Origin: an uncultured bacterium
GTDB lineage: Bacteria > Margulisbacteria > WOR-1 > CAVSGV01
Assembly: GCA_963699255.1 (NCBI GenBank)
Contig: OY969425.1
Location: forward strand, 150,001-182,000
DNA: 32,000 bases
Direction: 5' to 3'
In this document: in pieces, positions 7,794 through 31,125 of the stretch
Position numbering within the stretch: position 1 is the first letter of the stretch
Layout: each line of letters opens with the position of its first letter
The notes under the pieces: model-generated
Told to the model about the DNA's origin: nothing
The model's input: only the letters and a program-made list of their open reading frames with translations
Database searches by the model: none
Program-made: the position numbers and the translations under genes

Positions 7794-9355
7794 ATGAAGC
7801 AGGTTAAGTTATTTGATACTACGCTCAGGGACGGCGCCCAGACGGAGGGTATTTCCTTCACTGTTGAGGACAAACTGAAGATCGCCAAACTACTGGACAG
7901 GCTGGGAATTCACTATATCGAGGGCGGCTGGCCGGCTTCAACCCGAAAGATATCGAGTTCTTCAAGAGAGCTAGGGAACTTGATCTGAAAAACGCCAAAA
8001 TTGTCGCGTTCGGAAGCACGAGAAGAGCAAAGATAAAACCCGATGATGACCCGAACCTTAAAGCGATCATAGAGTCGGGAGCTCCCGCGGTCGCTTTATT
8101 CGGCAAATCCTGGGATTTCCATGTAACGGAAGCGCTGAAGATCTCTCTGGACGAGAATGTGGAACTTGTTGAAGATTCGATCAGTTTTCTTAAAAAGCAC
8201 GGCAAAGAAGTGATATTCGATGCCGAACATTTTTTTGACGGATATAAAGCCAACCCGAAATACGCGCTCAGGGTCCTGAGGGCGGCGCAATCCGGCGGCG
8301 CGGATGTTCTCTGCCTGTGCGATACGAACGGCGGAACGCTTGCTTTTGAAGCGCAGAAGATCATCAACGACGTAAAAAAACACGTGAAGAAGCCTCTGGG
8401 AATTCACGCTCACAATGATTCCGAATGCGCGGTCTCGGTTTCCTGTATGGCGGTTTACTGCGGGGTGACGCATGTCCAGGGGACGATGAACGGATACGGC
8501 GAGAGATGCGGCAACGCCGACCTTTGTTCGATAATCCCGATATTGAAGCTCAAACTCGGGATCGACTGCATCTCCGACGATCAGCTGAAAAGCCTGACCG
8601 AGATATCACGGCACATTGCCGAGATCGCAAATCTGCAGCAGAGCGTGCATCAGCCTTTTGTCGGCAGGAGCGCGTTCGCTCATAAAGGCGGGATCCATGT
8701 AAGCGCCGTTTTGAAGCATCCCGGCACATACGAGCACATTAAGCCAAGCCTGGTCGGCAATGAGCAGAGGGTAACGATCTCGGAGCTTTCCGGCGTGAGC
8801 AATCTTGTTTACAAAGCGAAGGATTACGGCGTTGACATAAAAAAAGATTCGCCGGAAGTAAAAACACTGCTTTCCAGTCTGAAAGCGTTGGAGCTCGAAG
8901 GCTACCAGTTCGAGGAAGGAGAAGCTTCTTTTGAGCTTCTTGTGAAGAAAGCGTTGAAAGCGTTCAAGCCCAGGTTCACTCTTGAAGGTTTTGACATCGT
9001 TACGGTCAAGCACGACACTGAGGCCACAAAAGTAAAAGCAAAACTGAAAATAAGGGTGGGGGAGAACGTCTCTGAGACGGAAGCTTACGGGGACGGGCCG
9101 ATCAATGCCATTGACGGCGCTTTAAGGAAGGCGATCGAAAGCGTTTTCCCGGAAATAAAGGAAGTTAAACTTACGGATTACAAGGTGAGGGTCCTGGATT
9201 CCGAGGAAGGCACCGCCGCGAAGGTGCGCGTTATCGTTGAATCTACCGACGGCAAAAGGACGTGGGGGACGGTTGGCGTTTCAACGAATGTCATTGAAGC
9301 GAGCTGGTTCGCGCTGCTGGACAGCATAGAATATAAGCTCATGATAGGAGAATAG
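7794..9355 (+). pseudogene. cimA: citramalate synthase / 2-isopropylmalate synthase family (CimA type), interrupted by an apparent 1-nt frameshift near 7932-7937
   Basis: The N-terminal piece (ATG 7794, [48 protein letters not shown]) stops at 7988. The protein continues in the frame one nucleotide back, from 7937 ([30 protein letters not shown]...), through the tracked ORF 8159..9355, which ends with a LeuA-dimer-like regulatory domain. This could be a sequencing error rather than a true pseudogene. Confidence 0.7.
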
Positions 9356-15331: not shown

Positions 15332-15847
15332 ATGACCAACAATAGGATAGGCTTCGGTTACGACGTCCACAAGCTTGTGAAAGGAAGAAAGTTGATAATC
15401 GGCGGCGTCGAGATAAAGTTCAAAAAAGGACTTGCCGGCCATTCCGATGCCGATGTCCTTGTACATGCTATCATCGATTCTTTGATTGGGGCTATGGGAG
15501 AACATGACATAGGATTTCATTTTCCGACGAACGACCCGAAGTATAAGGGAATTTCGAGCCTCCTTATGCTGGAAAAGATATCAGACCTCGTAAGATCAAA
15601 GGGATACACTGTAATAAATATCGACTCCACGGTCGTCGCGGAAGCCCCAAAGATCAGCCCGTATACAAGAGAGATGCGGATGAACATATCATCAGTTCTC
15701 GGCATTCCCGAGAACTGCGTCAATATCAAAAGCAAAACTGAGGAAGGGCTTGGCTTCACGGGAAAAGGGCAGGGCATAGCCGCTTACGCAGTATCCCTCA
15801 TAGAAGGCAATATTCTCCAATATGCCACAAATCTCTTCAAGAGATGA
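15332..15847 (+). CDS. ispF: 2-C-methyl-D-erythritol 2,4-cyclodiphosphate synthase
   Basis: 171 aa with IGFGYDVH and GHSDADVLVHA motifs. Confidence 0.9.
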   Translation: MTNNRIGFGYDVHKLVKGRKLIIGGVEIKFKKGLAGHSDADVLVHAIIDSLIGAMGEHDIGFHFPTNDPKYKGISSLLMLEKISDLVRSKGYTVINIDSTVVAEAPKISPYTREMRMNISSVLGIPENCVNIKSKTEEGLGFTGKGQGIAAYAVSLIEGNILQYATNLFKR

Positions 15848-18237
15848 AGCAAAAAGTTAAACTCGGAGTGAACATAGATCACGTTGCCACTTTGCGCCAG
15901 GCCAGGCTTGAGGGCTATCCTGATATCATCGAAGCGGCCAGGCTTGCCATTGCGGGCGGCGCCGACTCTATTGTCGCGCACCTTCGTGAGGACAGGCGCC
16001 ACATAAATGACGAAGATATTCGTTTAATAAGAAAGCTGAAAACCCACTTTGACCTTGAAATGGCTGCCACGGACGAAATGCTGAAGATAGCTTTGAGGGT
16101 CAAACCCGATATGGCGACAATAGTGCCTGAAAAAAGGCAGGAGCTTACTACCGAAGGCGGCCTTGATGTTAAAGGGAACCTCCCGAGGCTGACGGAATAT
16201 GCAAGAAAGCTCGAGGGTGCCGGCATAAGGGTAAGCCTTTTTGTCGATCCGATCGAGGATCAAATAAGAGCGTCTTCACGCACAGGAGCATCCTTTATTG
16301 AGCTCCACACAGGAGCTTACTCCCGTTCTTACTCAAAGAAGGACCTTAACGATGTCGCCAGCTCTGTTATTCTTGCAAAAGATCTGGGTCTCAGGGTGAA
16401 TGCCGGGCACGGCCTGAATTATGATAATGCGGCTCCTGTTGCAAAGCTTGACGGCATAGAGGAGCTGAACATCGGGTTCAGCATCATTGCCAGGAGCGTT
16501 TTTACGGGGCTGAAAAAAGCAACGGCAGACATGAAAAAGCTTTTATTGTTTTTTATAGTTTTTGTATCATTATGCGCGTGTTCATATTCGGCAACAAAAG
16601 AAGCTGTTCCGACACCGAAGATTGCAAAGACGCCGACGGTCGAAACTGCCGTATCGCCCTCTACGCCGGAAGCGGTCCCCGATTGGCTTAAGAGTCTCGG
16701 CGTGTCCACTAAAGCCTCAACCCTCGAACCTGGACAGAACACGGGTATGGCAAAGACGCCGACGGTCGAAACTACCGCATCGCCCTCTACGCCGGAAGCG
16801 GTCCCCGATTGGCTTAAGGATCTTGGCGTGTCCGTTAAGGCTTCAACCCTTGAAAGTACTCCTCCTCCGGAAAAAGAGAAACCTGTCTTCAGTGATGTTC
16901 CTCCGGATCACTGGGCGGCGCATTCAGTGAACAGCCTGGTGAAGATGGGGATCACGCAGGGTTATCCCGACGGCACTTTCAGGGGAGGCAACTACATATC
17001 AAGGTATGAGGCCGCGGTCTTCCTGTCTAAAATGGCTCACGCGGGGCAGGAGAAAGCTGCCGCCGATGAAAAACTCGTTGAGGAATTAAGGGCTGAGATC
17101 TACAAGATAAGGTATACTCTGGACCTGTACAAGAGGCCGCCTGAAAAGAAGACGCCCGTTTCCGCGACTTTTTATGCAAGGACCATAGTTGGAAATATCG
17201 TCTCAGCCAATTCCGCATCTTCCGCGATCAATGCGCCGCTGGGCCCGGTGTTCGACTACAGGCTGCAGGCCTCATACAAGCAGGAATTCGATGAGGACAC
17301 GTTCGTCAGGATAGGAATGGATACCATGGACTCGGCAAGGTCGGGCGGAAGGGATCTTGTGAAGGAAATGCTCGAGGGCGAGGCGCAGGCGATGACCAAG
17401 TCGGGGTTTGGAGTCAACGTGACCAGCGGTCCGGGGCTTGTGATACACAGAGAAGGCCCGGACAATATTTTCCCTTCCGAGGATTACACGGTATATGTAA
17501 GGCCTAATAACGGGATAAAGCTTTTTTATGAGAACGGGGAGCTTGACACGGGAATAGGATATAAGGCGACCACCGTTGCTACTGACGGGGCAGCAGGCGT
17601 GAACGATGCTTACGCATATGTTGCCTACAGTTTCAATAACACTTTCGTGGGAGATCTCACCGTTAAGTATTCGGCGGATCTTTTCAATAATGATCTGAGG
17701 GCGACTTATTCGACAGCAGAGTCGACCATAAATATGTATGAAATGGATATCGTTCCCAGTAAACAGCTTGAATTCGGGTTGAAATTAGGCGCTTCCTCAA
17801 GCCAGCAAACCTCGCATAATATTTTTGCGGGAATAAGCGTCATAACAAAAGACCTGATACGCAGCGGAAGCGCCATTAAATTGTTCGCGAACAAGATAGG
17901 CAGTGATTTCTTTGGCTACCCGGTTTATCCGGCGATAACCGGGGTCAATCTGTTCAATAAACTTTACCAGCCATCCACGTATGACATCGGGATGGAAATT
18001 TCCCAGGTTGTATCCAGGGCTCTTTCGCTTAAAATGATAGGCGATGTCGTTACGGGCCCCACCGGGCTGTACGGCGAGGATGAACCAAGCTCAAATGCCA
18101 CGTTCGAGCTCGACATGGATTACGGCCTGTTCGAAGGAGGTACCCTGAATTTCGGGTACAGGACATACCAGAACCCGAGTGCGACCGAAAATGCGACATC
18201 AGATATGCTAATGCTCGGTTTCAGGTATAATATTTAG
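15844..18237 (+). CDS. pdxJ: pyridoxine 5'-phosphate synthase (aa 1-~235) continuing, with no stop codon, into an SLH-domain / coiled-coil / beta-barrel (OmpM-type) protein
   Basis: 797-aa uninterrupted ORF. The N-terminal 230 aa carry PdxJ hallmarks (LGVNIDHVATLRQAR, HLREDRRHI, EMAAT, PEKRQELTTEGGLDV, NAGHGLNY, ELNIGFSII). From aa 230 comes a signal-peptide-like MKKLLLFFIVFVSLCAC. Confidence 0.8.
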   Translation: MKQKVKLGVNIDHVATLRQARLEGYPDIIEAARLAIAGGADSIVAHLREDRRHINDEDIRLIRKLKTHFDLEMAATDEMLKIALRVKPDMATIVPEKRQELTTEGGLDVKGNLPRLTEYARKLEGAGIRVSLFVDPIEDQIRASSRTGASFIELHTGAYSRSYSKKDLNDVASSVILAKDLGLRVNAGHGLNYDNAAPVAKLDGIEELNIGFSIIARSVFTGLKKATADMKKLLLFFIVFVSLCACSYSATKEAVPTPKIAKTPTVETAVSPSTPEAVPDWLKSLGVSTKASTLEPGQNTGMAKTPTVETTASPSTPEAVPDWLKDLGVSVKASTLESTPPPEKEKPVFSDVPPDHWAAHSVNSLVKMGITQGYPDGTFRGGNYISRYEAAVFLSKMAHAGQEKAAADEKLVEELRAEIYKIRYTLDLYKRPPEKKTPVSATFYARTIVGNIVSANSASSAINAPLGPVFDYRLQASYKQEFDEDTFVRIGMDTMDSARSGGRDLVKEMLEGEAQAMTKSGFGVNVTSGPGLVIHREGPDNIFPSEDYTVYVRPNNGIKLFYENGELDTGIGYKATTVATDGAAGVNDAYAYVAYSFNNTFVGDLTVKYSADLFNNDLRATYSTAESTINMYEMDIVPSKQLEFGLKLGASSSQQTSHNIFAGISVITKDLIRSGSAIKLFANKIGSDFFGYPVYPAITGVNLFNKLYQPSTYDIGMEISQVVSRALSLKMIGDVVTGPTGLYGEDEPSSNATFELDMDYGLFEGGTLNFGYRTYQNPSATENATSDMLMLGFRYNI
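16531..18237 (+). other. OmpM-like outer-membrane protein portion: signal/lipobox-like peptide, 2 x 42-aa repeat, SLH domain (16888-17034), short coiled coil, C-terminal beta-barrel-like region
   Basis: In-frame ATG at 16531. SLH-type sequence: FSDVPPDHWAAHSVNSLVKMGITQGYPDGTFRGGNYISRYEAAVFLSKM. The C-terminal ~360 aa show alternating hydrophobic/aromatic strand-like patterns and end with LMLGFRYNI. Confidence 0.6.
16624..16855 (+). repeat. tandem direct repeat, 2 x 126 bp (42 aa: AKTPTVET.ASPSTPEAVPDWLK.LGVS.KASTLE)
   Basis: Unit 1 starts at 16624 and unit 2 at 16750. Nucleotide identity by eye is high. Confidence 0.9.
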
Positions 18238-20142: not shown

Positions 20143-20481
20143 ATGAGCATAGTTCCGATGAACCAAAGTACAAGTAAATTTGACCCGTTGTCACAAGCCG
20201 GGATTGATTATTTTAATGCCAGGAAAGCTCAGTCAAAAGCATTGCAGGACGGCATCGCCGGCGCGCTTGACATAGCGAGGATAGCTACACCGGGACCGAA
20301 TGTTAATACCAGGAACGATTACACTGGCAGCCAGGACCCGGCTACGGCTATAATCAGGTTTTTATATAAGTTGGGGGTTTTCGGAGGCGAGGATCTACCA
20401 GGCACGCAGGTTTATTCGACCGATGCGGGCAGTTCGCAAGGATATGCAACGCCAAAACCCAAAATTGATACTGAGAGATGA
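20143..20481 (+). CDS. hypothetical 112-aa protein
   Basis: ORF with RBS GGGAG. No signal peptide or TM segment, and no family recognised. Confidence 0.55.
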   Translation: MSIVPMNQSTSKFDPLSQAGIDYFNARKAQSKALQDGIAGALDIARIATPGPNVNTRNDYTGSQDPATAIIRFLYKLGVFGGEDLPGTQVYSTDAGSSQGYATPKPKIDTER

Positions 20482-20497
20482 ACTTAGTGGAGCATAA

Positions 20498-20749
20498 ATG
20501 ACGACCGACATAATAATAGACCAGATAAGGACCCATTGGTGGATCCTGCTTTTTATAATATGCATGGTTTCATATTTTGTTTATTCCTTTATTAAGGAAG
20601 CCATGGAGCTTAAGGCGGTAAAAGACAGGAAGAAGGCGCTTGAAAAGGAACTGGACGGCTTGAAGGCTCAGTACAATGAAGAGGCGAAAAAGCTTGAAGG
20701 TAAAATGGAAGAACGGAAAAAATTCTATCGAGGGGGAAAAAGGCAGTGA
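20498..20749 (+). CDS. small single-pass membrane protein with a Lys/Glu-rich coiled-coil tail
   Basis: 83 aa with RBS GTGGAG. A hydrophobic segment (HWWILLFIICMVSYFVYSFI) is followed by KEAMELKAVKDRKKALEKELDGLKAQYNEEAKKLEGKMEERKK. Its stop overlaps the next gene's GTG (GTGA). Confidence 0.55.
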   Translation: MTTDIIIDQIRTHWWILLFIICMVSYFVYSFIKEAMELKAVKDRKKALEKELDGLKAQYNEEAKKLEGKMEERKKFYRGGKRQ

Positions 20750-22146
20750 GCGGCGAACTTCAACCGGTAGTGAGCAATAATCCTAACGGGACCAATTTGG
20801 GGAATACCGCCATTCCTGATAACCAATTTGATCCGAATGATCTTGTGGATTTTGCCAATCTGAAAAAGCAAATAGACGGCAATAAGGACGGAATTAGCCT
20901 TACAACTCTGAAGACCTTTCAAAGCCTGGATAAAGTGACACAAAAGTTGAAGGAGGAATTTAAAGGGCTTGGTATTGGCGAGAGTGAAATTCATGCATGG
21001 CTTGCAAAAATGATCACGAAGCAGCTGGCTGATCCGGGATCGTATCCGCTGAATCCCTCTGATTTCAATATACTTAAATGGGTTAAGATAGGGCGGAGGG
21101 AGGTTCGCGCGCTGGTAAATTCGGTACGTAACGACCTCAGCTTTTTCCAGAAAATAACCAGTACTCTTTCCGTTCATAAGGTGACCCGCGCCGCGTTCCA
21201 TGAATTATTCGTCATGAACGAAAATGATACCGCTCCCATTGACGGCTCAAAAGACCTGTTCCATGAATTATTCCACAGGGAGACCGTTGACCTTGATCAC
21301 TTCAAGACCACACTTGAAGATGAGGTGTTCCCTTTTGCCCAATCCGTATCTCCCCGCAACGCGCTCTCAAGGACGCTGCGGCTTCTGTCCGCAAGAAGGT
21401 TCATCATGATCGATTCAAACCACATGTCGGATTGCGTTAAAACAGCGTTGTATAATCTGGCACTGTCAAGGATCGAGAAAGAATTTCCTCCCGCACAGGA
21501 CAAAGATAAGCCGGATAACGCGAAGACCAGGAAAGACCTGCTGAAAGAGATCGCCGACTATCTTAACGGAAAGAAAGACGGTGAAAACAACGATATTTTC
21601 GATGTTTTGGGGATCACGCAGAGGCCTCCGGAGAAATTACCCCCGAAGAAACTTGATCCGAACTGCAGGGCGCAGGAACTGCATGATAAATATTTTAGCG
21701 GAGTGGAAGGATCGGCCCTGGTCGAGTCTATTGGTTATGCGTATTTCACGGGTCTCGCATCGGGCAAAACCGGCGTAAAAGATGTTTTTTCTTCGGCCGG
21801 GCTGAACACCATATGGGGGAGGCTTGTTCGTGATCTTGAACTGAAGGGCGGGAGCGAAATGGAATTCAACAGGAAGATCAAGAACCATTACGAAAAACAG
21901 GGAGAAGCTATGGATCATATGGTCACATCGCTCCTTGACGACTACGGATTGATGGATAACCCCGCTGACGGCGAAACGGATCCAGTCCAGGCGTGGAGCG
22001 GCAACGAGAAAATAATTGATATCGGCCCTTCCCACGAGACCCCGTTCTATCCGTGGGTCAACTGGGTAGTAAAGCATCCTGATGAGGTCGGCAAAAAGGA
22101 TATTGCGACGCCGCCCAAACCGACGGAGCAAGGGATACCTGAATAA
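20746..22146 (+). CDS. hypothetical 466-aa protein with a single HExxH motif
   Basis: Long ORF with a GTG start coupled to the upstream stop. HELFH lies at aa 173-177 (nt 21262-21276). No signal peptide and no family recognised. Confidence 0.6.
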   Translation: MSGELQPVVSNNPNGTNLGNTAIPDNQFDPNDLVDFANLKKQIDGNKDGISLTTLKTFQSLDKVTQKLKEEFKGLGIGESEIHAWLAKMITKQLADPGSYPLNPSDFNILKWVKIGRREVRALVNSVRNDLSFFQKITSTLSVHKVTRAAFHELFVMNENDTAPIDGSKDLFHELFHRETVDLDHFKTTLEDEVFPFAQSVSPRNALSRTLRLLSARRFIMIDSNHMSDCVKTALYNLALSRIEKEFPPAQDKDKPDNAKTRKDLLKEIADYLNGKKDGENNDIFDVLGITQRPPEKLPPKKLDPNCRAQELHDKYFSGVEGSALVESIGYAYFTGLASGKTGVKDVFSSAGLNTIWGRLVRDLELKGGSEMEFNRKIKNHYEKQGEAMDHMVTSLLDDYGLMDNPADGETDPVQAWSGNEKIIDIGPSHETPFYPWVNWVVKHPDEVGKKDIATPPKPTEQGIPE

Positions 22147-22303: not shown

Positions 22304-25300
22304 ATGCCGGAAATAAACATACAACAAGTTACCGATATTCCTCAAACCGACGCCACCAGCGATGTTGCTGGCGGCGCTGATGTTTCCGCGGCCTATATAG
22401 CTTCCGACGTACAGACCGCCCCAGATGTGAACGCGTCCATCGGCATTGACAGCGTAGCGGTCTCGTCCGGCGTTTCCACATCTCAGGTTGGCGTTGGCGG
22501 CGCTGTTGAGCAGGAAGAATCCTCAAATTACATCCAGAGCGATGTTGAGACGGCTTCACAATCCGGTCAGCTCGAATATGACATGAACTCCCTTGCGAAA
22601 ATAAATGACTCCTACAAATACATCGATCCAACCGCTTCCGGGATACAGTCGATACTGGCCAATCTATATGCGAACGGGACCATAAACAGCGGCATGTCCG
22701 AGGAAGAAGTCGTTCTTGCCATTAACACATACGTTTTCAGCAATTACTCGTACATAGCTGATACGGGTGATACCTGGAATTCCGTTTCGCAGACCATAAA
22801 GAACGGGGGAGGCGACTGCGAGGACTTCGCGAACCTGGCAGCCAGCCTGATGACAGCCGCATTATTGGACAGAGGACTTAGCCAGGAAGAAATAAACAAA
22901 AAGATCGATTGTGTTGTTGTTGCCGATCCCAACACCGGGTTGGGCCACGTTTATGTGCAGTATACCGGCGATGATGGCTCCATAAAATATCTGGACCCTG
23001 TTTCTGCAAGGGTAACGACTTCAATAGACAGCTCCAAGGTCGTTCTCTTCAGCTACAGCGATGAGAACGTGGATGTCATTGATGAAAACTTCGATTTCTC
23101 AAGGCTTGACACGGCCAGTTACACGATTCCGGCGGACACCGCCACCTATATCCAGGTCCTCCCTGGTGAGTTCCAGAATTACTGGGAGTCGCTGCTGGGC
23201 ATGGAGGACTCCGCGGCCCACGACAATGCCATCGGAATTTACCAGTCGTTACAGGACCTTATTAACGCAGTTAATGCGAAATACGGCAGCTGGGACAACG
23301 GCGTGACCACGACGGCTGATCTGGATACGATCAATGCTTTTCTTGCTAAACTGGATAGCAATTATATTCAGGACTATGATACGGTAGTTAAGCCGTTCCA
23401 GGACCAGTATGAGGCGATATTGACCAAGCTCGGCGTGGACACATCTCCATATAACCCGGACGCAACCGCATATTCTACCGCAATGCTCAATTATTTTACT
23501 ACCATGAATACATATATATTCGCTTATTGCTGGCACACAACAACTTATAAAGAATGGAGCCAGAGCGGCAAAACAATGAACGGCGTATCGGATGACCTTA
23601 TAGCTATCGAATATTTGAAGAACGGCATTTCGACCCTTGAAGATTTTAAAGCCAAGCATCATGACCAGATAATAGAGACCGCGGCTGACCCTACAAAGGG
23701 AACGGCCGAGGTGGATTGGTCAAACGATTATATATATGACAACATTTACTTTAAAAATCCCAACGGCGGAAATGTATGCACCGTGAGGCAGGGTTTAGCG
23801 GCCATTCAGGCGTATGTTTCGTATGTTGACGCGACCAAAACATGGAACTTCATGTCCCTTGCATATCCCGGAGAAGCCCGCGTGGCCAAATATTGCGGGT
23901 ATGCGGACAAATACCACACCAGCTTTAAAACGACCAATGATTATCTGGCATCCATCACCAGCTTCCTGGAACAGGCGGAGTACGGTGTGGGGGTGCTGGA
24001 CAAGGATCTGGAGGAGTTGGACAGCGCGATAGATGTAATAAATGCCGATGCGACCGTTACCGACGACCAGACCAATTATAATTCCGCTGATGCAAAGTTC
24101 AACAACTGTACCGATGCTGCGGCAAATGATGCTGTAAACCTTTATTGGAATGGCGAAGCAGATTATCTCACTTCAGGAAACCCCGACAACAGTCTGTTAC
24201 AGGTCACTGATGAGAAGACGAGAAATGCAAACCTGGAAGCTCTTTATAAACAGGCCAGCTCTTATGACCAGGGCCAGATGTATGCGGGTTCAAACCAGGC
24301 GGATGTTGAAGCGGCCCTGGAATATTATGTTGAATTCAAGACTGCAGACAAGGCTCTGACGGAGGCGAAAACAACACAGGCCACCTTAAGGGCTGACTTC
24401 AAGGCGATGTACAAGAACGCGGATGGCAGTGAAATGTCCGACGCGGACCTTGACAATGTTCTGAACGACTATCAATCCGAATATATGAGCAAAGATACCG
24501 ACCCCTCAAGCACCACTTATGGCTACTGGGAGATCAATCAGGATGCATCGCTGTTCACCGAAAAGATAAAAGAAGCGAGCATGTTGAAAGGGTACCTGAC
24601 CGGAATATCTCTTATATATGAGGCAAGGAGGGACCTGAGAAAACTGGTCGAGGAAGAACTGGAGGGGGAAGGCGACGACTACAAGGCGATGGAGATAAAC
24701 AAGCTGTTCATGAAAAAGGTGAACAAGCTGACGGAATATATCCAGCAGACGATCGTTGATGTGTTGTCGGCAATAAACTCCCTTGACCAGGCCAAGTATG
24801 ATCAGGATGTAAGCGACATAAACACAAAATATGATAAAAAGGCGGAAGAAATAAAGAAGAACGACGCGCTCAAGTGGTATCAGTTCTGCGAGGACGACAA
24901 CACGCAAGAGGATCTCCTTAAAAATGACGATGCGAGGTATGGCGAAATCAACGCTGCGGATGATAAGTTCAAGGCGGTAAAAGAAAAACAACTGAACATC
25001 GTCAAGCACCTGCTGTCGGAGACCGGAATGACGGTTTCGGGGACAACGGGAGATGAAATATGGGCTTCCATAAATAAACAGATTAACACTTCGCTGGACA
25101 ATATGGATAATTACAGCCGCGCCACGCTTAACACGAGCGATGACTCCCAATACCGCGAAGTGGACAGAAATCTGGTAAGTTCTGAGAGGGCAAGCCTGCT
25201 GGGCGTCTTCGGTATTCAAAGGATGATACTTATAGCAAGGCAGGCGGGAAGCGACATGAGGAACCTTGTTCATCAGGAGATGACGGGGATCGGCGGCAGG

Positions 25301-28300
25301 CAGTCAAGAACGGATGTTGCTGCAGATATGGTTTCGGCCGACTCCAATATGGTGATGACCTGGTTCGATGAAGCGGTGAGCGACATAGAAACAATAACGA
25401 ACCTCGGCAACCAGATCAGGTATAACGAGATACAGATAGAGAAGAACCAAAAGCTGATCGAGAAGATAGATTCGCAGAAATCGAAAAGATTATGGGGGCA
25501 TATTTTTGAGGCACTTGCCTTTGTGGCGGCGGTCGTCGCGATATGGGTCCCTATAGTCGCGGTCGTCGCGATCGCGTTTGGCGTTGTTTCGGCTGTTTTG
25601 AAGGCGTCCGCAAATAAAGCGGTGGCGGATGAGAAAGCAAAACTGGAAAAAGACTATAGCTACCAGGTGATAAAGCCGACGGATCCGGTCTTTGAAAAGA
25701 AGCTCAATGCGATGAGCGGGTTAACGGACGAACAAAAGAAAGAGATACTGCAGAATTATGATCCGAACTCGACGACATTTAAGGGTAATTTGGATAAGGT
25801 CAGCGGCTTAAGCGCGGAGCAGAAGGATGAAATATTGAACGCGGCTGATCCGAGCCGGGCAGCCTATGAGAAGACCATTAATGCCGACACTTCCTTAACT
25901 GAAAAACAAAAAGAAGCTCTAATTAACGCGTATGACCCGAATGAAGAGATCTTTAAAAAGAACCTGGCGAATCTCAACGCGTCCACCTCGGCCCCGTGGT
26001 ATGAGTTCTGGAAAAGCGACACGCCGGGATTGGGGTTAAGCGACTCCCAGATCACCATGATAACCGACGCGTATGAAGGGAATACCTTCATGCTCAGTAT
26101 TGATTCTAGTACTATATTAACCGAAGCTCAAAAGAAAGAGATAAGGAATGCATATGATAAGGACAGGGTGACTTTTGAATCGAATTTAGACAGCCTTGGT
26201 TTAAGCGATGACCAGATAAGCGCGGTAATGAAGGCATATGATGAGCAGACTGACAATTCGGCGAACGATAAGAATTATTCAGATGATAATATCATCAATA
26301 CGGCGTTGAATTCAGATAACTCGACGCAGGACATACTTTGGAACATGAACGATGCCAACTATCTGTCCTTTATGAATGACGGGCACGCAGGCTCATACGC
26401 GGGATCATCTGCGTTTAACACGGTCAAGTTCGCGAGCACCCTGGAGAACATAAAGGCCAATGACCTGATCGTCATGGTCGCCGAATCTTGCAGGGAGACG
26501 ATGGCCGAGATGAGGAACCTGGTGCATGAGGAAATGACCTCTATCGGGGGAAGGTCGCCGTCAAGCATGGTAACGGCCACGATGGAAGCGGCCAGAGGTC
26601 AGGAAGCTTTCATCGCGAATGAAATGTACATGAAGCTGTGGGACATGAACACCTCGAACAATCAAAGGTTCGAGAGGGACCAGAAGCTGAGGCTCTATCA
26701 GCAAATGGCAGATGAGGCGGATGTGACCTTTGGTCTGAGCTTTATCCCTATTGTCGGAGGGCCGGTGGGGGATTTTTATTCGAACCTGAGCGGTATGAAG
26801 GATCAGAGGAACCAGCTGGAGGAGACAAGCAATGAAAAATTTGATGCAAATCCCGACCTGGAAGAAGCGGATCTTAACGCTTTAGTCGAGGATGGTCTGA
26901 TAAATACGGGGAATGACACAAAAGGGGTTAATTATGAGAAAGTATCCAATGCTCGAACCGCGGTCGCAAAGGAATTCATAAAGGAAAGCGTTGAAGCGAC
27001 GATAAAGAAGACCCTGCATGAGCTAAGAAGCATCGCTCACATGGAAATGACGAATATCCAGAGCAGCACGGGCACGGATTTTGCCAGCCAGGCTAATATC
27101 GTGAACTTCACGTCGGCACTGGAGACCATTTCACTTGTCACCCAATACCTTACCCAGAAGGCGGAGATAATGAACAGGGTCACCGAGGCGAACCAGAGCA
27201 TCTCAAAGCTGAACAAGCAGATCACAAACTATGAGATCGGGGGAGGGATAGCCCTGGCGGTCGCGATCGTGGTATCTGTTTTCATGCCCGGCGGGTTTGA
27301 CTCTGTTCTGGCCGCTCTTGATACCCTTCAACTTGCTTCCTCCGTTGGCAGTTTTGTTCTCGGGGTATTCAGCACTATAAACGCGTGGATCGAAGCGAAA
27401 TTCGCAGCTCAGCTGGCAAAGGACGACATGGGCGATGTCGCCGAATACCTGGAGATACAGGACATGAACAATGAGAACATCGATTCCACCCAGAACAGGC
27501 TGGAGGCTCTTGAACAGAACAGCATAAATGAAATAAACGCGAGCCTGCTTCAGGACCTTGGCTCCGGATACATAGGAGTGAACAAGGCGCTTTCGTCAGA
27601 GTTTAAGACCTTAATAGAACAGCTTTACAGGGCAGAGAGAAGTCAATCGGAGATCCAGCAGACCCTTGAGGCGTTAAGGAATACCGTGCACGAGGCAATG
27701 ACCGGAATATCCGGCGTGTCCAGCAACGCGACCATGTCTATTCTTGACATGAAGGAAAAGGCAATAAAGGCGAAGATAGACGACATGTTCAGCAAGCTTG
27801 AAGAGGTGGCGACCAGGTGGAACCAGATCTCGGATGCCCAGAGAGCGGCGGAAAAAGCCAGAATGCAGGCATGGACGACCACTCTCAGCACCATTATACA
27901 GGGCATCATAATTGCGATATCGCTTTATAGCGCGTTCGGTAAGGAGCCGGCGGCGAAAGATAAAGTTGATGCGGCGCAAAATGACGTGGATAGTGCACAG
28001 ACCCCTGATGAATTAGATGCGGCGGAAGGTGAGCTTCGTGATGCCCAAGCCGACTATCAAGCCCTTCAAAGCAGGGTCGCGCTATACACCAATGTTTGCC
28101 TCCCCGCGGCGGAGATCCTGATCAAGCTGGCTATGGCCTTTATAGAAAAAGATGAAATGCAAGGCGTTCAAAAGACAAGGGAAGAGGAAGTATCGAATGC
28201 GGGGGTCACGAAGGTTACGAAGGACGCAGGCGAGACGGTGAAAGAGGGCGTTGCGGGAGCCGGCCTTAATGGGTTTGCGGCGAGGGGCCAGGCGGTAGCC

Positions 28301-30166
28301 GGACAGCGTGAGGTGGACAATCAGGCAGCCACATACGCCCTGAAGAGCGACGAGATCGAGGATGATTTTAGGACGAATCTATACAACGTTGAAATGGACA
28401 CCGTGGACTATGCTAAGGGGCTTACGAAGGAGCTGGCAAGAATGTGGAAGAACAGGAGAACAGAGGCTTACCAGAACACGCAGAGCTTCGCGAAGCAATT
28501 GGAGTCGATGAAATTGAGCAAGGCTCAGATGGACGCGCTTAACCAGGCATTTAAGAGCGACAGCGCTGAAGAATTCTTGAAGCAGCTGGCGTCAATAAAC
28601 GGGTTGAGCGATGCCCAGGTGAACGCGATAGAGCAAGCTTATGATAATTGCAAGCATGTTTCCGCCCTTGGCTCCTTTAAGGAAAGAATGGATGCATCAG
28701 CTGCGGTAGGGAAATTGGATCCGGCACAGAAGAAAGCGGTAATTGATGCGGCTAATAGCAGCACAAGCGTTAAAGACTTTGCGAAGAAATTGAACGCGAT
28801 ACAGGGATTAAGCTCTACTCAGAAGGACGCGTTAATTAACGCATTCGATCCGAAAATGAAGACCTTTGCGGACAAGATCGACGCGTCGCTGACGCTGAAT
28901 AATGATGATAAAAAGAGCGCGGTAAAGAATGCCTATGACCCGAACGTTAAGACCTGTATCAATAATGTATTAGCAATATCATCCCTGACCGATGCTGAAA
29001 AACTGACGGCGCTGCAGGCCATTGATCCGAAGATAAGTTCTTTTATAGACAATATGGGTCCGGCAGTGACCGATACCCAGAAGCTGTCCATAATGAAACA
29101 GTTCGATCCGAACGAGGTGGCTTTTAAGAAGAACGTTGATTCAATGGATGATATAACTCCGGTCCAAAAGAAGGATGTCATGAAGGCATTTCACATGGCA
29201 GTGATAGATAACAAAGACATAAAAAATCTGACCGATGCGGATAAGATAAAATCGATACAGGGCTTAAATCCGGCAATGAAGCATAAGATGGTCAAAGCTG
29301 TATATGACGCCCAGCATAAGGTCAGTCAGGCGAAAGATCTGATCAACCAAGCGAAGCAGCTGCCTTCCATCAATCAGGTGACGGGCGCCGGCACACAGGC
29401 GCAGTCCCAGGCGATCTCGACGCCGCCGGTGGCCCCGCAGGGAAAACAGTCAGCGAACACCTCCAATACACAGGCTATGCTGGATAAGCTCCTGAGCAGT
29501 TTTGATAAGAACATGCAGGAATTAAATGGTTTACAATCTCAGGTTGATAAGCTTAATGCCCAGACGACGGAAAAGCTGGACCCGAAAGAATTGTTGAAAA
29601 TACTTCAGCAGCAGTTGAAGGATGCGGGCGCGAAGATCGCCAACGAAAAGAAATTAATCGACACCATGAAGCAGGAGGTTGCAAAGACCCAGACAGCTCT
29701 TGCCACACAGGAACAGAACGTGCAAGAGGAAAGAGATAAACTTGTTAAAGCTATAAAGAAAGTGGATGATCAGATAAAAAAACTTGGTGAACTGGCCGCA
29801 AGATCCCCCGAGAATAAGAAGGTCATTGAAAATCAGTTGAACCAGTTGAATGACCAGCTTGAAGAAATGATGACATTATATAAATCGACGCAAGAAATGT
29901 ACGGTATTGCCCTGGGGACGGAAAAAGCCCTGGAGAATGAAATAAAGGATAAGGAAGGCAAGGTGGAGATACTTAAAGCGGAAGTTGTCAAGATCAAGGC
30001 GGATATAAACAATATACAGAAAGAGATCCTGGCGAAGAAAGCCGGCGGGGACAATAAGAATACGGCCAGCATCAATATCCAGACGCCGAAGATCACTTCA
30101 GAGACGCCAATGTTCAGCACAGGCGCTCCAACAGCCCCCAAAAAACAATACGCCTATACAGCATAG
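22304..30166 (+). CDS. giant (2620 aa) multi-module membrane-associated coiled-coil protein with an N-terminal transglutaminase-like cysteine-peptidase core; function unknown
   Basis: 7.86 kb frame with no stop, and a good RBS and promoter motif. Predicted features come from reading the translation. Hydrophobic segments lie at aa 1067-1099, 1645-1665, 1677-1696 and 1857-1879. Internal repeats and a C-terminal heptad-rich region (~aa 2390-2580) are also present. Confidence 0.85.
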   Translation: MPEINIQQVTDIPQTDATSDVAGGADVSAAYIASDVQTAPDVNASIGIDSVAVSSGVSTSQVGVGGAVEQEESSNYIQSDVETASQSGQLEYDMNSLAKINDSYKYIDPTASGIQSILANLYANGTINSGMSEEEVVLAINTYVFSNYSYIADTGDTWNSVSQTIKNGGGDCEDFANLAASLMTAALLDRGLSQEEINKKIDCVVVADPNTGLGHVYVQYTGDDGSIKYLDPVSARVTTSIDSSKVVLFSYSDENVDVIDENFDFSRLDTASYTIPADTATYIQVLPGEFQNYWESLLGMEDSAAHDNAIGIYQSLQDLINAVNAKYGSWDNGVTTTADLDTINAFLAKLDSNYIQDYDTVVKPFQDQYEAILTKLGVDTSPYNPDATAYSTAMLNYFTTMNTYIFAYCWHTTTYKEWSQSGKTMNGVSDDLIAIEYLKNGISTLEDFKAKHHDQIIETAADPTKGTAEVDWSNDYIYDNIYFKNPNGGNVCTVRQGLAAIQAYVSYVDATKTWNFMSLAYPGEARVAKYCGYADKYHTSFKTTNDYLASITSFLEQAEYGVGVLDKDLEELDSAIDVINADATVTDDQTNYNSADAKFNNCTDAAANDAVNLYWNGEADYLTSGNPDNSLLQVTDEKTRNANLEALYKQASSYDQGQMYAGSNQADVEAALEYYVEFKTADKALTEAKTTQATLRADFKAMYKNADGSEMSDADLDNVLNDYQSEYMSKDTDPSSTTYGYWEINQDASLFTEKIKEASMLKGYLTGISLIYEARRDLRKLVEEELEGEGDDYKAMEINKLFMKKVNKLTEYIQQTIVDVLSAINSLDQAKYDQDVSDINTKYDKKAEEIKKNDALKWYQFCEDDNTQEDLLKNDDARYGEINAADDKFKAVKEKQLNIVKHLLSETGMTVSGTTGDEIWASINKQINTSLDNMDNYSRATLNTSDDSQYREVDRNLVSSERASLLGVFGIQRMILIARQAGSDMRNLVHQEMTGIGGRQSRTDVAADMVSADSNMVMTWFDEAVSDIETITNLGNQIRYNEIQIEKNQKLIEKIDSQKSKRLWGHIFEALAFVAAVVAIWVPIVAVVAIAFGVVSAVLKASANKAVADEKAKLEKDYSYQVIKPTDPVFEKKLNAMSGLTDEQKKEILQNYDPNSTTFKGNLDKVSGLSAEQKDEILNAADPSRAAYEKTINADTSLTEKQKEALINAYDPNEEIFKKNLANLNASTSAPWYEFWKSDTPGLGLSDSQITMITDAYEGNTFMLSIDSSTILTEAQKKEIRNAYDKDRVTFESNLDSLGLSDDQISAVMKAYDEQTDNSANDKNYSDDNIINTALNSDNSTQDILWNMNDANYLSFMNDGHAGSYAGSSAFNTVKFASTLENIKANDLIVMVAESCRETMAEMRNLVHEEMTSIGGRSPSSMVTATMEAARGQEAFIANEMYMKLWDMNTSNNQRFERDQKLRLYQQMADEADVTFGLSFIPIVGGPVGDFYSNLSGMKDQRNQLEETSNEKFDANPDLEEADLNALVEDGLINTGNDTKGVNYEKVSNARTAVAKEFIKESVEATIKKTLHELRSIAHMEMTNIQSSTGTDFASQANIVNFTSALETISLVTQYLTQKAEIMNRVTEANQSISKLNKQITNYEIGGGIALAVAIVVSVFMPGGFDSVLAALDTLQLASSVGSFVLGVFSTINAWIEAKFAAQLAKDDMGDVAEYLEIQDMNNENIDSTQNRLEALEQNSINEINASLLQDLGSGYIGVNKALSSEFKTLIEQLYRAERSQSEIQQTLEALRNTVHEAMTGISGVSSNATMSILDMKEKAIKAKIDDMFSKLEEVATRWNQISDAQRAAEKARMQAWTTTLSTIIQGIIIAISLYSAFGKEPAAKDKVDAAQNDVDSAQTPDELDAAEGELRDAQADYQALQSRVALYTNVCLPAAEILIKLAMAFIEKDEMQGVQKTREEEVSNAGVTKVTKDAGETVKEGVAGAGLNGFAARGQAVAGQREVDNQAATYALKSDEIEDDFRTNLYNVEMDTVDYAKGLTKELARMWKNRRTEAYQNTQSFAKQLESMKLSKAQMDALNQAFKSDSAEEFLKQLASINGLSDAQVNAIEQAYDNCKHVSALGSFKERMDASAAVGKLDPAQKKAVIDAANSSTSVKDFAKKLNAIQGLSSTQKDALINAFDPKMKTFADKIDASLTLNNDDKKSAVKNAYDPNVKTCINNVLAISSLTDAEKLTALQAIDPKISSFIDNMGPAVTDTQKLSIMKQFDPNEVAFKKNVDSMDDITPVQKKDVMKAFHMAVIDNKDIKNLTDADKIKSIQGLNPAMKHKMVKAVYDAQHKVSQAKDLINQAKQLPSINQVTGAGTQAQSQAISTPPVAPQGKQSANTSNTQAMLDKLLSSFDKNMQELNGLQSQVDKLNAQTTEKLDPKELLKILQQQLKDAGAKIANEKKLIDTMKQEVAKTQTALATQEQNVQEERDKLVKAIKKVDDQIKKLGELAARSPENKKVIENQLNQLNDQLEEMMTLYKSTQEMYGIALGTEKALENEIKDKEGKVEILKAEVVKIKADINNIQKEILAKKAGGDNKNTASINIQTPKITSETPMFSTGAPTAPKKQYAYTA
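22630..23030 (+). other. transglutaminase-like / BTLCP-like Cys-His-Asp core within the giant ORF
   Basis: DTWNSVSQTIKNGGGDCEDFANLAASL (Cys172, nt 22817-22819), GLGHVYVQY (His215, nt 22946-22948) and KYLDPV (Asp231, nt 22994-22996). Order and spacing fit the transglutaminase-like protease fold. Confidence 0.55.
25693..26250 (+). repeat. protein-level repeat array A (~6 units of ~28-30 aa, consensus gLSxxQKxxIxNAYDPNxxxFxxNL)
   Basis: Example units: MSGLTDEQKKEILQNYDPNSTTFKGNLDKV / SGLSAEQKDEILNAADPSRAAYEKTINAD / TSLTEKQKEALINAYDPNEEIFKKNLANL / TILTEAQKKEIRNAYDKDRVTFESNLDS. Confidence 0.8.
28487..29320 (+). repeat. protein-level repeat array B (~9 units of the same repeat family as array A)
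   Basis: Example units: QGLSSTQKDALINAFDPKMKTFADKIDAS / LTLNNDDKKSAVKNAYDPNVKTCINNVLAI / SSLTDAEKLTALQAIDPKISSFIDNMGPA / VTDTQKLSIMKQFDPNEVAFKKNVDSM. Confidence 0.8.
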
Positions 30167-30321: not shown

Positions 30322-31020
30322 ATGGGCAGAGTATTGACATATATTTATTCGGTGATCTTTTGGGCATATCTTCTGCTCTTCTTCACACTGGTGCCGCTCT
30401 TCGCCCTGCCGTTCTCCTTGATATTCGGGCTGAAGCGGTCTTTCAGGACTTTTTTCAAGATATTCGTCAAATTCGGGCTGTTCATTTTAGGCTGTTTTCC
30501 GTCCGTTGAGGGGCTTGAGAACATGCCCCGGGGCAAAAATGTCATCCTTGTATCAAATCACCCCAGCTTCATGGACCCGTTCCTTCTTAACGCGGCCCTG
30601 CCCGGGTTCTACAATTTCATAGTTTCAGCCAGATTGCTTGATAATCCTTATTCAATGGTGGCAATAAGGGGCGCAGGCCTTGTGGTGAAGCGCTACGGAC
30701 ATTCCCTGTATGGTTCAAGCGCGATGATCAGGACCGTGAAAGCCATAAATGCCGGCGACTCGTTCATTCTGTTCCCGTCCGAGCGCGCCATTCTAGGAGG
30801 CCGCATCGATAAGATAAACCCCGGCTTTTATAAGGTGATTGAGGATGCGAGTGCAGTCATCCTGCCTGTGTTCATCAAGCAGGAAATAAGGTTCACATTT
30901 ATACGGAAGCCGTTCAAGGCAAAAGTGGTCATCGGAAAGCCGCTGGATAAACATAATGTACTATATGTAAGAGACAACGCCATTAAACAGGCAGTAGAAT
31001 TTCTAGGGCAACAAGTGTAA
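30322..31020 (+). CDS. lysophospholipid/1-acylglycerol-3-phosphate acyltransferase family (LPLAT, PlsC-like)
   Basis: 232 aa. The hydrophobic N-terminus is followed by the HX4D motif NHPSFMD. FPSER stands in the place of the usual FPEGTR block. Confidence 0.65.
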   Translation: MGRVLTYIYSVIFWAYLLLFFTLVPLFALPFSLIFGLKRSFRTFFKIFVKFGLFILGCFPSVEGLENMPRGKNVILVSNHPSFMDPFLLNAALPGFYNFIVSARLLDNPYSMVAIRGAGLVVKRYGHSLYGSSAMIRTVKAINAGDSFILFPSERAILGGRIDKINPGFYKVIEDASAVILPVFIKQEIRFTFIRKPFKAKVVIGKPLDKHNVLYVRDNAIKQAVEFLGQQV

Positions 31021-31067: not shown

Positions 31068-31125
31068 ATCTCCCCCTTAGTAAGGGGGAGATACAGAGGG
31101 GGTTATTAAGCCCTCTTATTCTTAT
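31068..31125 (+). terminator. two consecutive hairpins followed by T-rich sequence after the acyltransferase gene
   Basis: ATCTCCCCCTTA-G-TAAGGGGGAGAT (31068-31092, 12-bp arms), then AGAGGG-N10-CCCTCT (31095-31116), then tattcttatttat. Confidence 0.45.

Follow-up and report, generated by a model that had tools for sequence, protein, structure and literature searches.

Does the giant gene of the locus studied here carry five true copies of one module and, if so, what might such a protein build? The window, that is, the whole stretch of DNA analysed, is 32,000 nucleotides (nt) long (contig OY969425.1, assembly GCA_963699255.1, positions 150,001 to 182,000 of the forward strand) and comes from an uncultured bacterium of the Margulisbacteria (WOR-1). 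Its open reading frame (ORF) list and translation hold an ORF of 2,620 amino acids (aa) at 22304-30166 (+), and a word-indexed search found the identical giant protein on a 1.77-Mb NCBI contig. An earlier note, made from the letters of the window, had described a ~100-aa unit repeated five times at 24623-27940; these positions map exactly to aa 774-1879, the ORF encloses the entire five-module core, and the five motifs quoted were all present: LRKLVEEELEG at aa 778, MRNLVHQEMTG at aa 985, MRNLVHEEMTS at aa 1403, LRSIAHMEMTN at aa 1574 and LRNTVHEAMTG at aa 1791.

Comparison of the whole giant protein with itself by BLASTP returned the identity match only; internal repeats surfaced when fragments were compared with fragments, which revealed two independent repeat systems, the motif-bearing module and an unrelated ~30-aa repeat. 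Copies 2 and 3 (aa 978-1012 and 1396-1430) were 51% identical over 35 aa with an E-value (E) of 1.5e-8, and copies 3 and 5 (aa 1396-1454 and 1784-1841) matched at E 1e-4. A hidden Markov model (HMM) was prepared for each module, with five relatives as the source of orthologous copies and with the window protein and the hydrophobic segments left out. Each HMM found its own module in the window protein at 1e-55 to 1e-65; cross-module matches among modules 2-5 had independent E-values of 1e-6 to 3e-13, and the module-1 HMM matched module 2 at 2.4e-8. The cross-module matches cover 60-120 profile positions, with their start ~60 residues before the motif. Significant self-similarity is thus found by the HMMs and by BLASTP alike, and the five units are, as judged from sequence comparison, true paralogues; the repeat noted earlier is borne out, and more strongly than it was first put.

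How widespread and how old is the arrangement? A word-indexed search with the module alignment as query found nothing, and one with the giant protein returned only 5 relatives, all from metagenomes or metagenome-assembled genomes (MAGs), with transglutaminase as the sole Pfam domain. The earlier note had proposed searching databases with a module HMM; when 1.84 billion cluster representatives were searched exhaustively with the module profile (hmmsearch), 85 proteins matched at E <= 1e-3 (29 of them at E <= 1e-30), nearly all 1.2-5.2 kaa long and typically with 4-5 matched stretches. Modules were counted in 86 proteins, after one local iteration, and 242 copies align to one model. Exactly five modules were present in 61 of the 86 proteins and more than five in none; where fewer were counted, the protein is a fragment or strongly divergent. 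When modules were compared between proteins, the best match had the same ordinal position in 51-76% of cases, with 20% expected by chance. At the DNA level, modules 2 and 3 share a 49-nt repeat (78%) over their tip motif, and one weaker match of 34 nt is the only other repeat between modules; a recent duplication of the DNA is ruled out, since DNA similarity between modules is limited to the conserved tip motif. Positional orthology, together with the confinement of the DNA repeat to the motif, indicates that the duplication predates the family; read from these alignments, the five-fold duplication is old, and the number and order of its products are constrained. The proposal that the protein grew by duplicating a unit is right in that the units are paralogous but is not supported where it suggests open-ended growth, since the count rests at five and is never higher. 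Divergent giant ORFs with weak module matches were seen in Riflemargulisbacteria and Termititenax MAGs, and the module represents, as far as seen, an undescribed domain family found so far only in Margulisbacteria-type bacteria. In one member, P0078 (L055:10001-20128), the N-terminal part contains Dockerin_1/EF-hand repeats (E 1.3e-15), and a 553-aa EF-hand protein (L054:23471-25132 (-), E 1.8e-8) adjoins another member; these occurrences hint at a calcium link or at an extracytoplasmic location.

The ~30-aa repeat, with the consensus LTxxQKxxIxNAYDPNxxTFxxNL, forms arrays at ~aa 1115-1330 and 2040-2340 (internal BLASTP E down to 3e-11). The linker hosting the first array varies from 70 to 548 aa across the family, and the linkers after modules 3 and 4 are 47-141 aa, including the hairpin. 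The ~30-aa repeats are greatly expanded in P0005 and missing at the first site in P0004 and P0006, which indicates that their copy number, unlike that of the five modules, is free.

The module differs in outline from the unit first described. It is ~135 aa long and starts ~60 aa upstream of the motif, which had been taken as the opening of the ~100-aa unit and which forms the tip of a helical hairpin; the "Ser/Thr-rich turn" of the earlier note is the loop of that antiparallel hairpin. The order of elements is a short helix, a beta-hairpin, helix A of ~40 aa, a Gly-rich tip, helix B of 55-69 aa and a hydrophobic hairpin. The two-stranded beta-hairpin spans a G-x-G-x-x-G-V-N/D stretch; helix A terminates at the M-T of the tip motif (consensus R-x-[LI]-V-H-x-E-M-T-G-x-G-G), and an 8-residue Gly/Ser loop comes next. 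In the AlphaFold2 (AF2) models, helix B pairs antiparallel with helix A and runs unbroken into the first hydrophobic helix, and so replaces the "~45-aa helix" of the earlier description. The turn of the hydrophobic hairpin has 3-7 residues with Pro/Gly (WVP, IPIVGG, FMPGG), and the returning hydrophobic helix extends ~15-20 residues further. Two models were made. The first covered aa 715-1900 (1,186 residues) from a 34-sequence family alignment and gave a mean predicted local distance difference test (pLDDT) score of 72.3 and a predicted template-modelling (pTM) score of 0.61, with the identical order of elements five times; module 1, for example, has strands at 14-16 and 28-30 and helices at 36-73 and 84-143 (model numbering). 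The second, a single-module prediction as the earlier note had suggested, covered module 4 with its hydrophobic part (aa 1516-1705) from 44 module sequences and gave a mean pLDDT of 86.9, with core blocks at 93-97; a helix at 29-68, a loop and a helix at 77-145 lead into the hydrophobic hairpin.

The strongest columns among the 242 aligned copies are Asn106 in helix B (94%) and Arg57 (85%); V-H-x-E-M-T-G is kept at 57-81% per position, and two Gly of the beta-hairpin and the N/D preceding helix A are also informative. Hydrophobic residues recur with a 3-4 spacing, and with several adjacent pairs, along helix A and, as far as the Asn, along helix B. The coiled-coil stretch of helix B ends at this ~94%-conserved Asn, from which a charged neck of ~20 aa (~13-25 residues) leads to the membrane segment. 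The lengths of helix and neck would place the tip roughly 9 nm from the membrane surface. The Arg, the M-T-G and the Asn are retained at all five module positions, with the variant r.lv.eeltG in module 1. These data bear upon the simplest alternative, that there is no real repeat and that generic coiled-coil composition combined with a short motif by chance. Charged helical sequences do often give spurious internal matches, and the module HMMs picked up weak extras in the C-terminal coiled coil (E 0.02-0.8); against this, the cross-module matches came from HMMs that contained neither the target protein nor the hydrophobic part, non-helical features (the beta-hairpin G-x-G...V-N/D, the Gly tip, the Asn) stand in register, the AF2 order of elements is the same five times, and 242 copies in 86 proteins fit one model with conserved columns. 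The chance reading is refuted by these results, and we leave it next to no probability.

What follows each module is hydrophobic in most cases. The segments begin within a few residues of the module end, and the distance of 66-82 aa from motif to segment given in the earlier note was correct. With a Kyte-Doolittle (KD) mean of >1.6 over 19 residues as the threshold, aa 1062-1105 (maximum 2.85), 1642-1673 (continuing to 1696) and 1860-1880 stood out in the window protein. Family statistics were taken over 61 five-module relatives: a peak (KD >1.6) after module 1 was present in only 11%, and a segment after module 2 in 89-97% of family members. Median uncharged runs after modules 2, 3 and 4 were 40/42/44 residues, or 40/38/29 by the longest-run measure. 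The segments of modules 2-4 nearly always have a central Pro/Gly; the one after module 2 in the window protein has 30 uncharged residues and is modelled by AF2 as helix, turn and helix, unbroken from helix B. The stretch after module 3 in the window protein and its closest relatives has 16 uncharged residues, against a family median of ~38-42. The module-5 segment has ~20-23 in the family, and a second hydrophobic helix 45-70 aa past it recurs in many relatives (e.g. P0002, P0003, P0010, P0014); that of the window protein, aa 1927-1947, lies beyond the range noted earlier. The membrane part is absent from module 1, a tight hairpin in modules 2-4 (degenerate here in module 3) and a split hairpin in module 5.

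From hydropathy we infer that the segments after modules 2-5 are membrane hairpins; the pattern is that of membrane hairpins and not of buried soluble helices, and copies 2-5 couple, as first proposed, a long helix to a membrane-hairpin-like segment (30-46 uncharged residues, central Pro/Gly). The unit is, however, a beta-hairpin with an antiparallel helical hairpin and a transmembrane (TM) hairpin rather than a helix with a tail anchor, and 740 residues follow the last TM hairpin; nor is the "basic patch" said to precede the membrane a family feature, as the flanking charges are mixed and the C-terminal flanks net acidic. An even number of membrane passes would leave both ends of the protein on the same side.

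No known family accounts for the module. The module matched no Pfam family, even at E 10, and NCBIfam, PHROGs, PADLOC and Pfam, run on the whole protein, each module and 19 further members, gave only the transglutaminase core and the dockerin/EF-hand repeats of P0078. Sequence-profile searches of the PDB gave nothing below E 0.0018 and nothing meaningful, and Foldseek gave no match at E <= 0.001 (PDB with both models; BFVD with the module model only). A literature search found no paper with the motif or the family and none tying Margulisbacteria to transglutaminase; a giant-gene preprint mentions Margulisbacteria only in passing. The top Foldseek PDB matches of the module were Mrs2 Mg2+ channels, at chance level (E 0.9-2.1, best TMq 0.39): 8tul at E 0.9 and 8q8q at E 1.2 with TMq 0.39 over 202 columns, at a probability <= 0.23; ESCRT-III proteins, APP E2 and adaptor hairpins came further down the list. 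For the five-module model the top matches were ABC exporters (E >= 0.17, TM-score <= 0.09). We would take all of these as shape leads only, suggestive of a long hairpin with a second helix that turns into a TM helix.

Our tentative preference, to which we give a little less than an even chance, is that the five ancient stalk modules form a closed, pseudo-five-fold, membrane-anchored bundle displaying five tips. The fixed number and order of the modules and the short linkers suggest that they would lie side by side. In each unit, helix B would enter the membrane, and the Pro/Gly turn and second hydrophobic helix would return the chain to the same side; the bundle would anchor the giant protein in the cell's own membrane and hold the five conserved tips ~9 nm off it, where they would offer a surface for docking or assembly. 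This platform may carry, as variable appendages, the transglutaminase-like domain, the ~30-aa arrays and the C-terminal coiled coil, and the bundle as a whole may be a single-chain analogue of homo-oligomeric stalk-and-TM assemblies. We favour insertion into the cell's own membrane, with the bulk of the protein probably cytoplasmic, because the N-terminus has no signal peptide, 1,060 residues precede the first hairpin, the hydropathy maximum is as high as KD 2.85 and the gene lies in housekeeping synteny.

The same five-fold count and the Mrs2 matches invite a bolder reading, in which the protein would be a single-chain pseudo-pentameric channel or stator-like machine that mimics CorA/Mrs2 or the A-ring of a 5:2 motor (MotA, ExbB, ZorA), with the small single-TM proteins encoded upstream as possible inner partners and the tips and the Asn layer as functional sites. 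The likeness is one of architecture: each of the five units in a CorA/Mrs2 assembly is built on two antiparallel helices, the second of which extends as a very long stalk into TM1; a tight loop and TM2 follow. A MotA chain appeared at E 1.7 in the PDB profile search, and an 83-aa ORF that combines a TM helix with a charged helix precedes the giant gene, with two ORFs of this kind in L056. CorA/Mrs2 is, however, a homopentamer of separate chains with GMN after TM1, an N-terminal alpha/beta domain and a Pfam match, whereas the giant protein is one chain with no GxN and only 3-4 units with membrane hairpins. GxN was not seen at the end of TM1 in the turns of the window protein (WVP, IPIVGG, FMPGG) or in those of the family, which are P/G-rich. 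No CorA/Mrs2 profile matched any module with hairpin in Pfam at E <= 10 or was listed in the PDB profile searches, and no CorA, MotA or ExbB Pfam match came up at E 10. Five equivalent TM1 helices to line a pore are not there, as module 1 has no hydrophobic segment and module 3 one of 16 residues; at most four hairpins, three in the window protein, could line it, and the first hydrophobic helices are purely apolar. Membership in the CorA family is thus rejected by three marks: the GxN motif, profile similarity and the count of TM units. The fold and profile matches that suggested the machine were all at chance level (E ~1, probability <= 0.23), the small TM ORF lacks a TM Asp, its charged tail would suggest an orientation opposite to MotB/ExbD, and it is absent near P0058. 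We regard this machine as quite improbable; were it real, Margulisbacteria and their relatives would have a class of envelope machine that is new and peculiar to them.

A different question is whether the hairpins are meant for the cell's own membrane at all. The protein might be an exported effector or adhesin that leaves by a signal-peptide-independent route via its N-terminal motifs and whose hairpins, Inc-like, translocator-like or like those of an alpha-helical pore-forming toxin, insert into the membrane of a host or of prey, or into the outer face of the producer. There is no Sec signal, yet short N-terminal motifs stand at fixed positions in many members: AAVxPxYI at ~aa 26 and ESSNYI at ~aa 72 were found, with a loose regular expression, in 36 and 39 of 87 family proteins, respectively. 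The C-terminal ends of several distant members read GAGVA, GGGVSC or similar, and a loose [TSNV][TSPEA]M[FV] pattern near the C terminus occurs in 7 of the 87, the window protein included; the short motifs at both ends are possible docking or export signals. Dockerin/EF-hand domains, as in P0078 and in the neighbour at L054, usually lie outside the cytoplasm, and the transglutaminase-like cysteine-protease fold, present in the giant protein, is common in secreted effectors.

The hydrophobic domains also recall Inc proteins, which have bilobed hydrophobic domains of ~40 aa, coiled-coil-prone flanks and no Sec signal. The P/G-centred domains of the family are of this kind by length (~40-60 aa for the Inc type), with medians of 38-40 uncharged residues after modules 2-3 and 29 after module 4, or 40-44 for modules 2-4 by the other measure. 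Inc proteins are, however, small, with one bilobed domain near the N-terminus, are substrates of type III secretion systems (T3SS) and occur in Chlamydiae only, whereas the giant protein has four hairpins in 2,620 aa, its first hydrophobic segment from aa 1063 and a Margulisbacteria-type host. The Inc reading has neither sequence similarity nor fold support, and that of a T3SS translocator is rejected because T3SSipB matched only at E 2.2 and 9 bits against a cut-off of 31, with no match of the whole protein. A SNARE or tail-anchored fusogen is likewise rejected: no SNARE Pfam model matched, and the hydrophobic parts are internal hairpins with hundreds of residues after them. Only the syntaxin N-terminal model appeared, at E 2.6, and SNARE-motif and Inc models were not listed, so the earlier view that there is no sequence evidence for a fusogen, Inc protein or T3SS translocator holds. 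ClyA-type toxins had no Pfam match either, and no Foldseek match was significant. Secretion-system genes, those of T3SS included, were found neither in the 32-kb window nor in loci L054-L056, the housekeeping neighbourhood is kept down to relatives of ~24% identity, and a KD of 2.85 would favour capture by the producer's own insertion machinery. On this balance we consider export unlikely, though less so than the pseudo-pentameric machine.

Two further comparisons concern the stalk. ESCRT-III, PspA and Vipp1 share a membrane-associated helical hairpin of ~60-70 Å with the module, and several were among its Foldseek matches; they have no TM hairpins, beta-hairpin or tip motif and polymerise from separate subunits, and the reading was rejected at Foldseek E 5-9 and TM-scores of ~0.2-0.25, with no PspA_IM30 or Snf7 Pfam match. 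Chemotaxis receptors and the loops of ABC exporters, an analogy only, are membrane-anchored long hairpins with a conserved distal tip that docks a partner; neither sequence nor any significant fold match relates them to the giant protein, as no MCPsignal match was obtained and ABC_membrane matched only at E 0.054.

Several points weigh against the membrane-anchored five-tip bundle. Inter-module packing was judged from pLDDT, pTM and DSSP alone, and membrane insertion is read from hydropathy only. Just four modules have membrane parts, that of module 3 being too short here for a bilayer-spanning hairpin, and the symmetry would therefore be imperfect. The flanking charges give no clear orientation, and the dockerin/EF-hand repeats of P0078, the EF-hand neighbour at L054 and the fixed N-terminal motifs leave some probability to an export route.

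The features of the giant gene and of the ORFs just before it are collected in Table 1. The PF01841 match scored 29.4 bits against a cut-off of 23, and the Cys-His-Asp triad can be read in the sequence, so the domain belongs to the transglutaminase-like superfamily by both marks. It covers aa 123-235, outside the stretch noted earlier, and is missing in many family members and C-terminal in P0022, which indicates that it is accessory to the five-module core. A 255-aa antisense ORF (24506-25273 (-)) lies wholly within the giant gene and is most likely a by-product of sense-strand composition.

Table 1. Features of the giant gene and its upstream ORFs (positions in the window).
Feature	Position	Strand	Basis
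Three upstream ORFs (112 aa, 83 aa, 466 aa)	20143..22146	+	tblastn
N-terminal short motifs VAGGADVSAAYIASDV (aa 21-36) and EESSNYIQSDV (aa 71-81)	22364..22546	+	
Transglutaminase-like core (Cys172/His215/Asp231)	22670..23008	+	Pfam PF01841, aa 123-185, E 1e-6
Module 1 (aa 718-857), without hydrophobic segment	24455..24874	+	HMM matches, AF2
Degenerate tip of module 1, LRKLVEEELEGEGD	24635-24676	+	
Module 2 (aa 932-1059)	25097..25480	+	
Tip of module 2, MRNLVHQEMTGIGG	25256-25297	+	
Hydrophobic hairpin after module 2 (aa 1063-1099), turn W-V-P	25490..25600	+	
First ~30-aa repeat array, in linker after module 2	25646..26293	+	fragment BLASTP
Module 3 (aa 1346-1476)	26339..26731	+	
Tip of module 3, MRNLVHEEMTSIGG	26510-26551	+	
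Degenerate hydrophobic stretch after module 3, VTFGLSFIPIVGGPVG (aa 1474-1489)	26723..26770	+	
Module 4 (aa 1516-1646)	26849..27241	+	
Tip of module 4, LRSIAHMEMTNIQS	27023-27064	+	
Hydrophobic hairpin after module 4 (aa 1645-1696), turn F-M-P-G-G	27236..27391	+	
Module 5 (aa 1731-1862)	27494..27889	+	
Tip of module 5, LRNTVHEAMTGISG	27674-27715	+	
Split hairpin after module 5: helix 1857-1879, 47-aa acidic loop, helix 1927-1947	27872..28144	+	
Second ~30-aa repeat array	28421..29323	+	fragment BLASTP
C-terminal charged coiled-coil-like region	29501..30121	+	
TPMFST (aa 2601-2606), near the end of this region	30104-30121	+	

The other genes of the window are housekeeping genes: leuA-like, a pyridoxal phosphate-dependent decarboxylase, cdaA, panB, aroK, aroB, tyrS, ispF, pdxJ with S-layer homology (SLH) domains, rpiB, a nucleoside diphosphate (NDP)-sugar pyrophosphorylase, pta, tldD-like and others. 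The best named relatives of the tyrosyl-tRNA synthetase belong to Candidatus Margulisiibacteriota and Saganbacteria (59-69% identity). The conserved order is aroK-aroB-tyrS-ispF-pdxJ-SLH-rpiB-NDP-sugar pyrophosphorylase-small ORFs-giant; genome loci L001-L004 and metagenome loci L057-L060 share it from ispF onward, and the 8 loci of a metagenome scan with a narrow alignment confirmed the synteny. The same order was found in L056, with aroK-aroB-tyrS further upstream and a giant protein (P0021) only ~24% identical.

Just upstream of the giant gene there is usually an 83-aa TM ORF and an ORF of 330-470 aa. In the window the 83-aa ORF would encode one TM helix and a charged helix, and the 466-aa ORF contains an EF-hand-like loop, DGNKDGISLTTL. 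By tblastn, both precede the giant gene in L001, L002 and L004, and L057 and L058 have the 83-aa ORF there as well; ORFs of 92/83/329/78 aa hold the counterpart position in L056. The upstream ORFs had no match in Pfam, NCBIfam or PADLOC, and the neighbouring ORFs gave no informative family.

PdxJ (aa 6-233) and the SLH-domain protein form one 797-aa ORF at 15844-18237, which aligns as a single stretch in L057 and corresponds to separate genes of 241 and 507 aa in L056; this may be a real fusion, or it could represent a lost stop codon. The leuA/homocitrate-synthase-like ORF at 8159-9355 aligns to the profile of the HMGL-like domain from position 114 onward only, and its N-terminal part is therefore missing, which could result from a wrong start, a frameshift or truncation. 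The one convincing terminator-like hairpin found downstream of the giant gene (31096-31117 (+)) lies past an acyltransferase ORF (30322-31020), so the two genes may be co-transcribed; the acyltransferase is upstream of the giant gene in L059 and L060, and the promoter and terminator scan did not define the operon limits.

Margulisbacteria are an uncultured sister lineage of Cyanobacteria, and to our knowledge their cell biology is essentially unknown. In these bacteria the giant gene is a syntenic fixture of the chromosome, and its product is among the largest proteins of the cell, with a core that has no relative in curated libraries. If the modules do form a closed pseudo-oligomer, the protein would be a rare case of a membrane assembly like a homo-oligomer built within one chain and would give a handle on envelope organisation in this lineage. 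The module alignment can be used as a new domain model, with which ~85 clusters of giant "hypothetical" proteins may be annotated.

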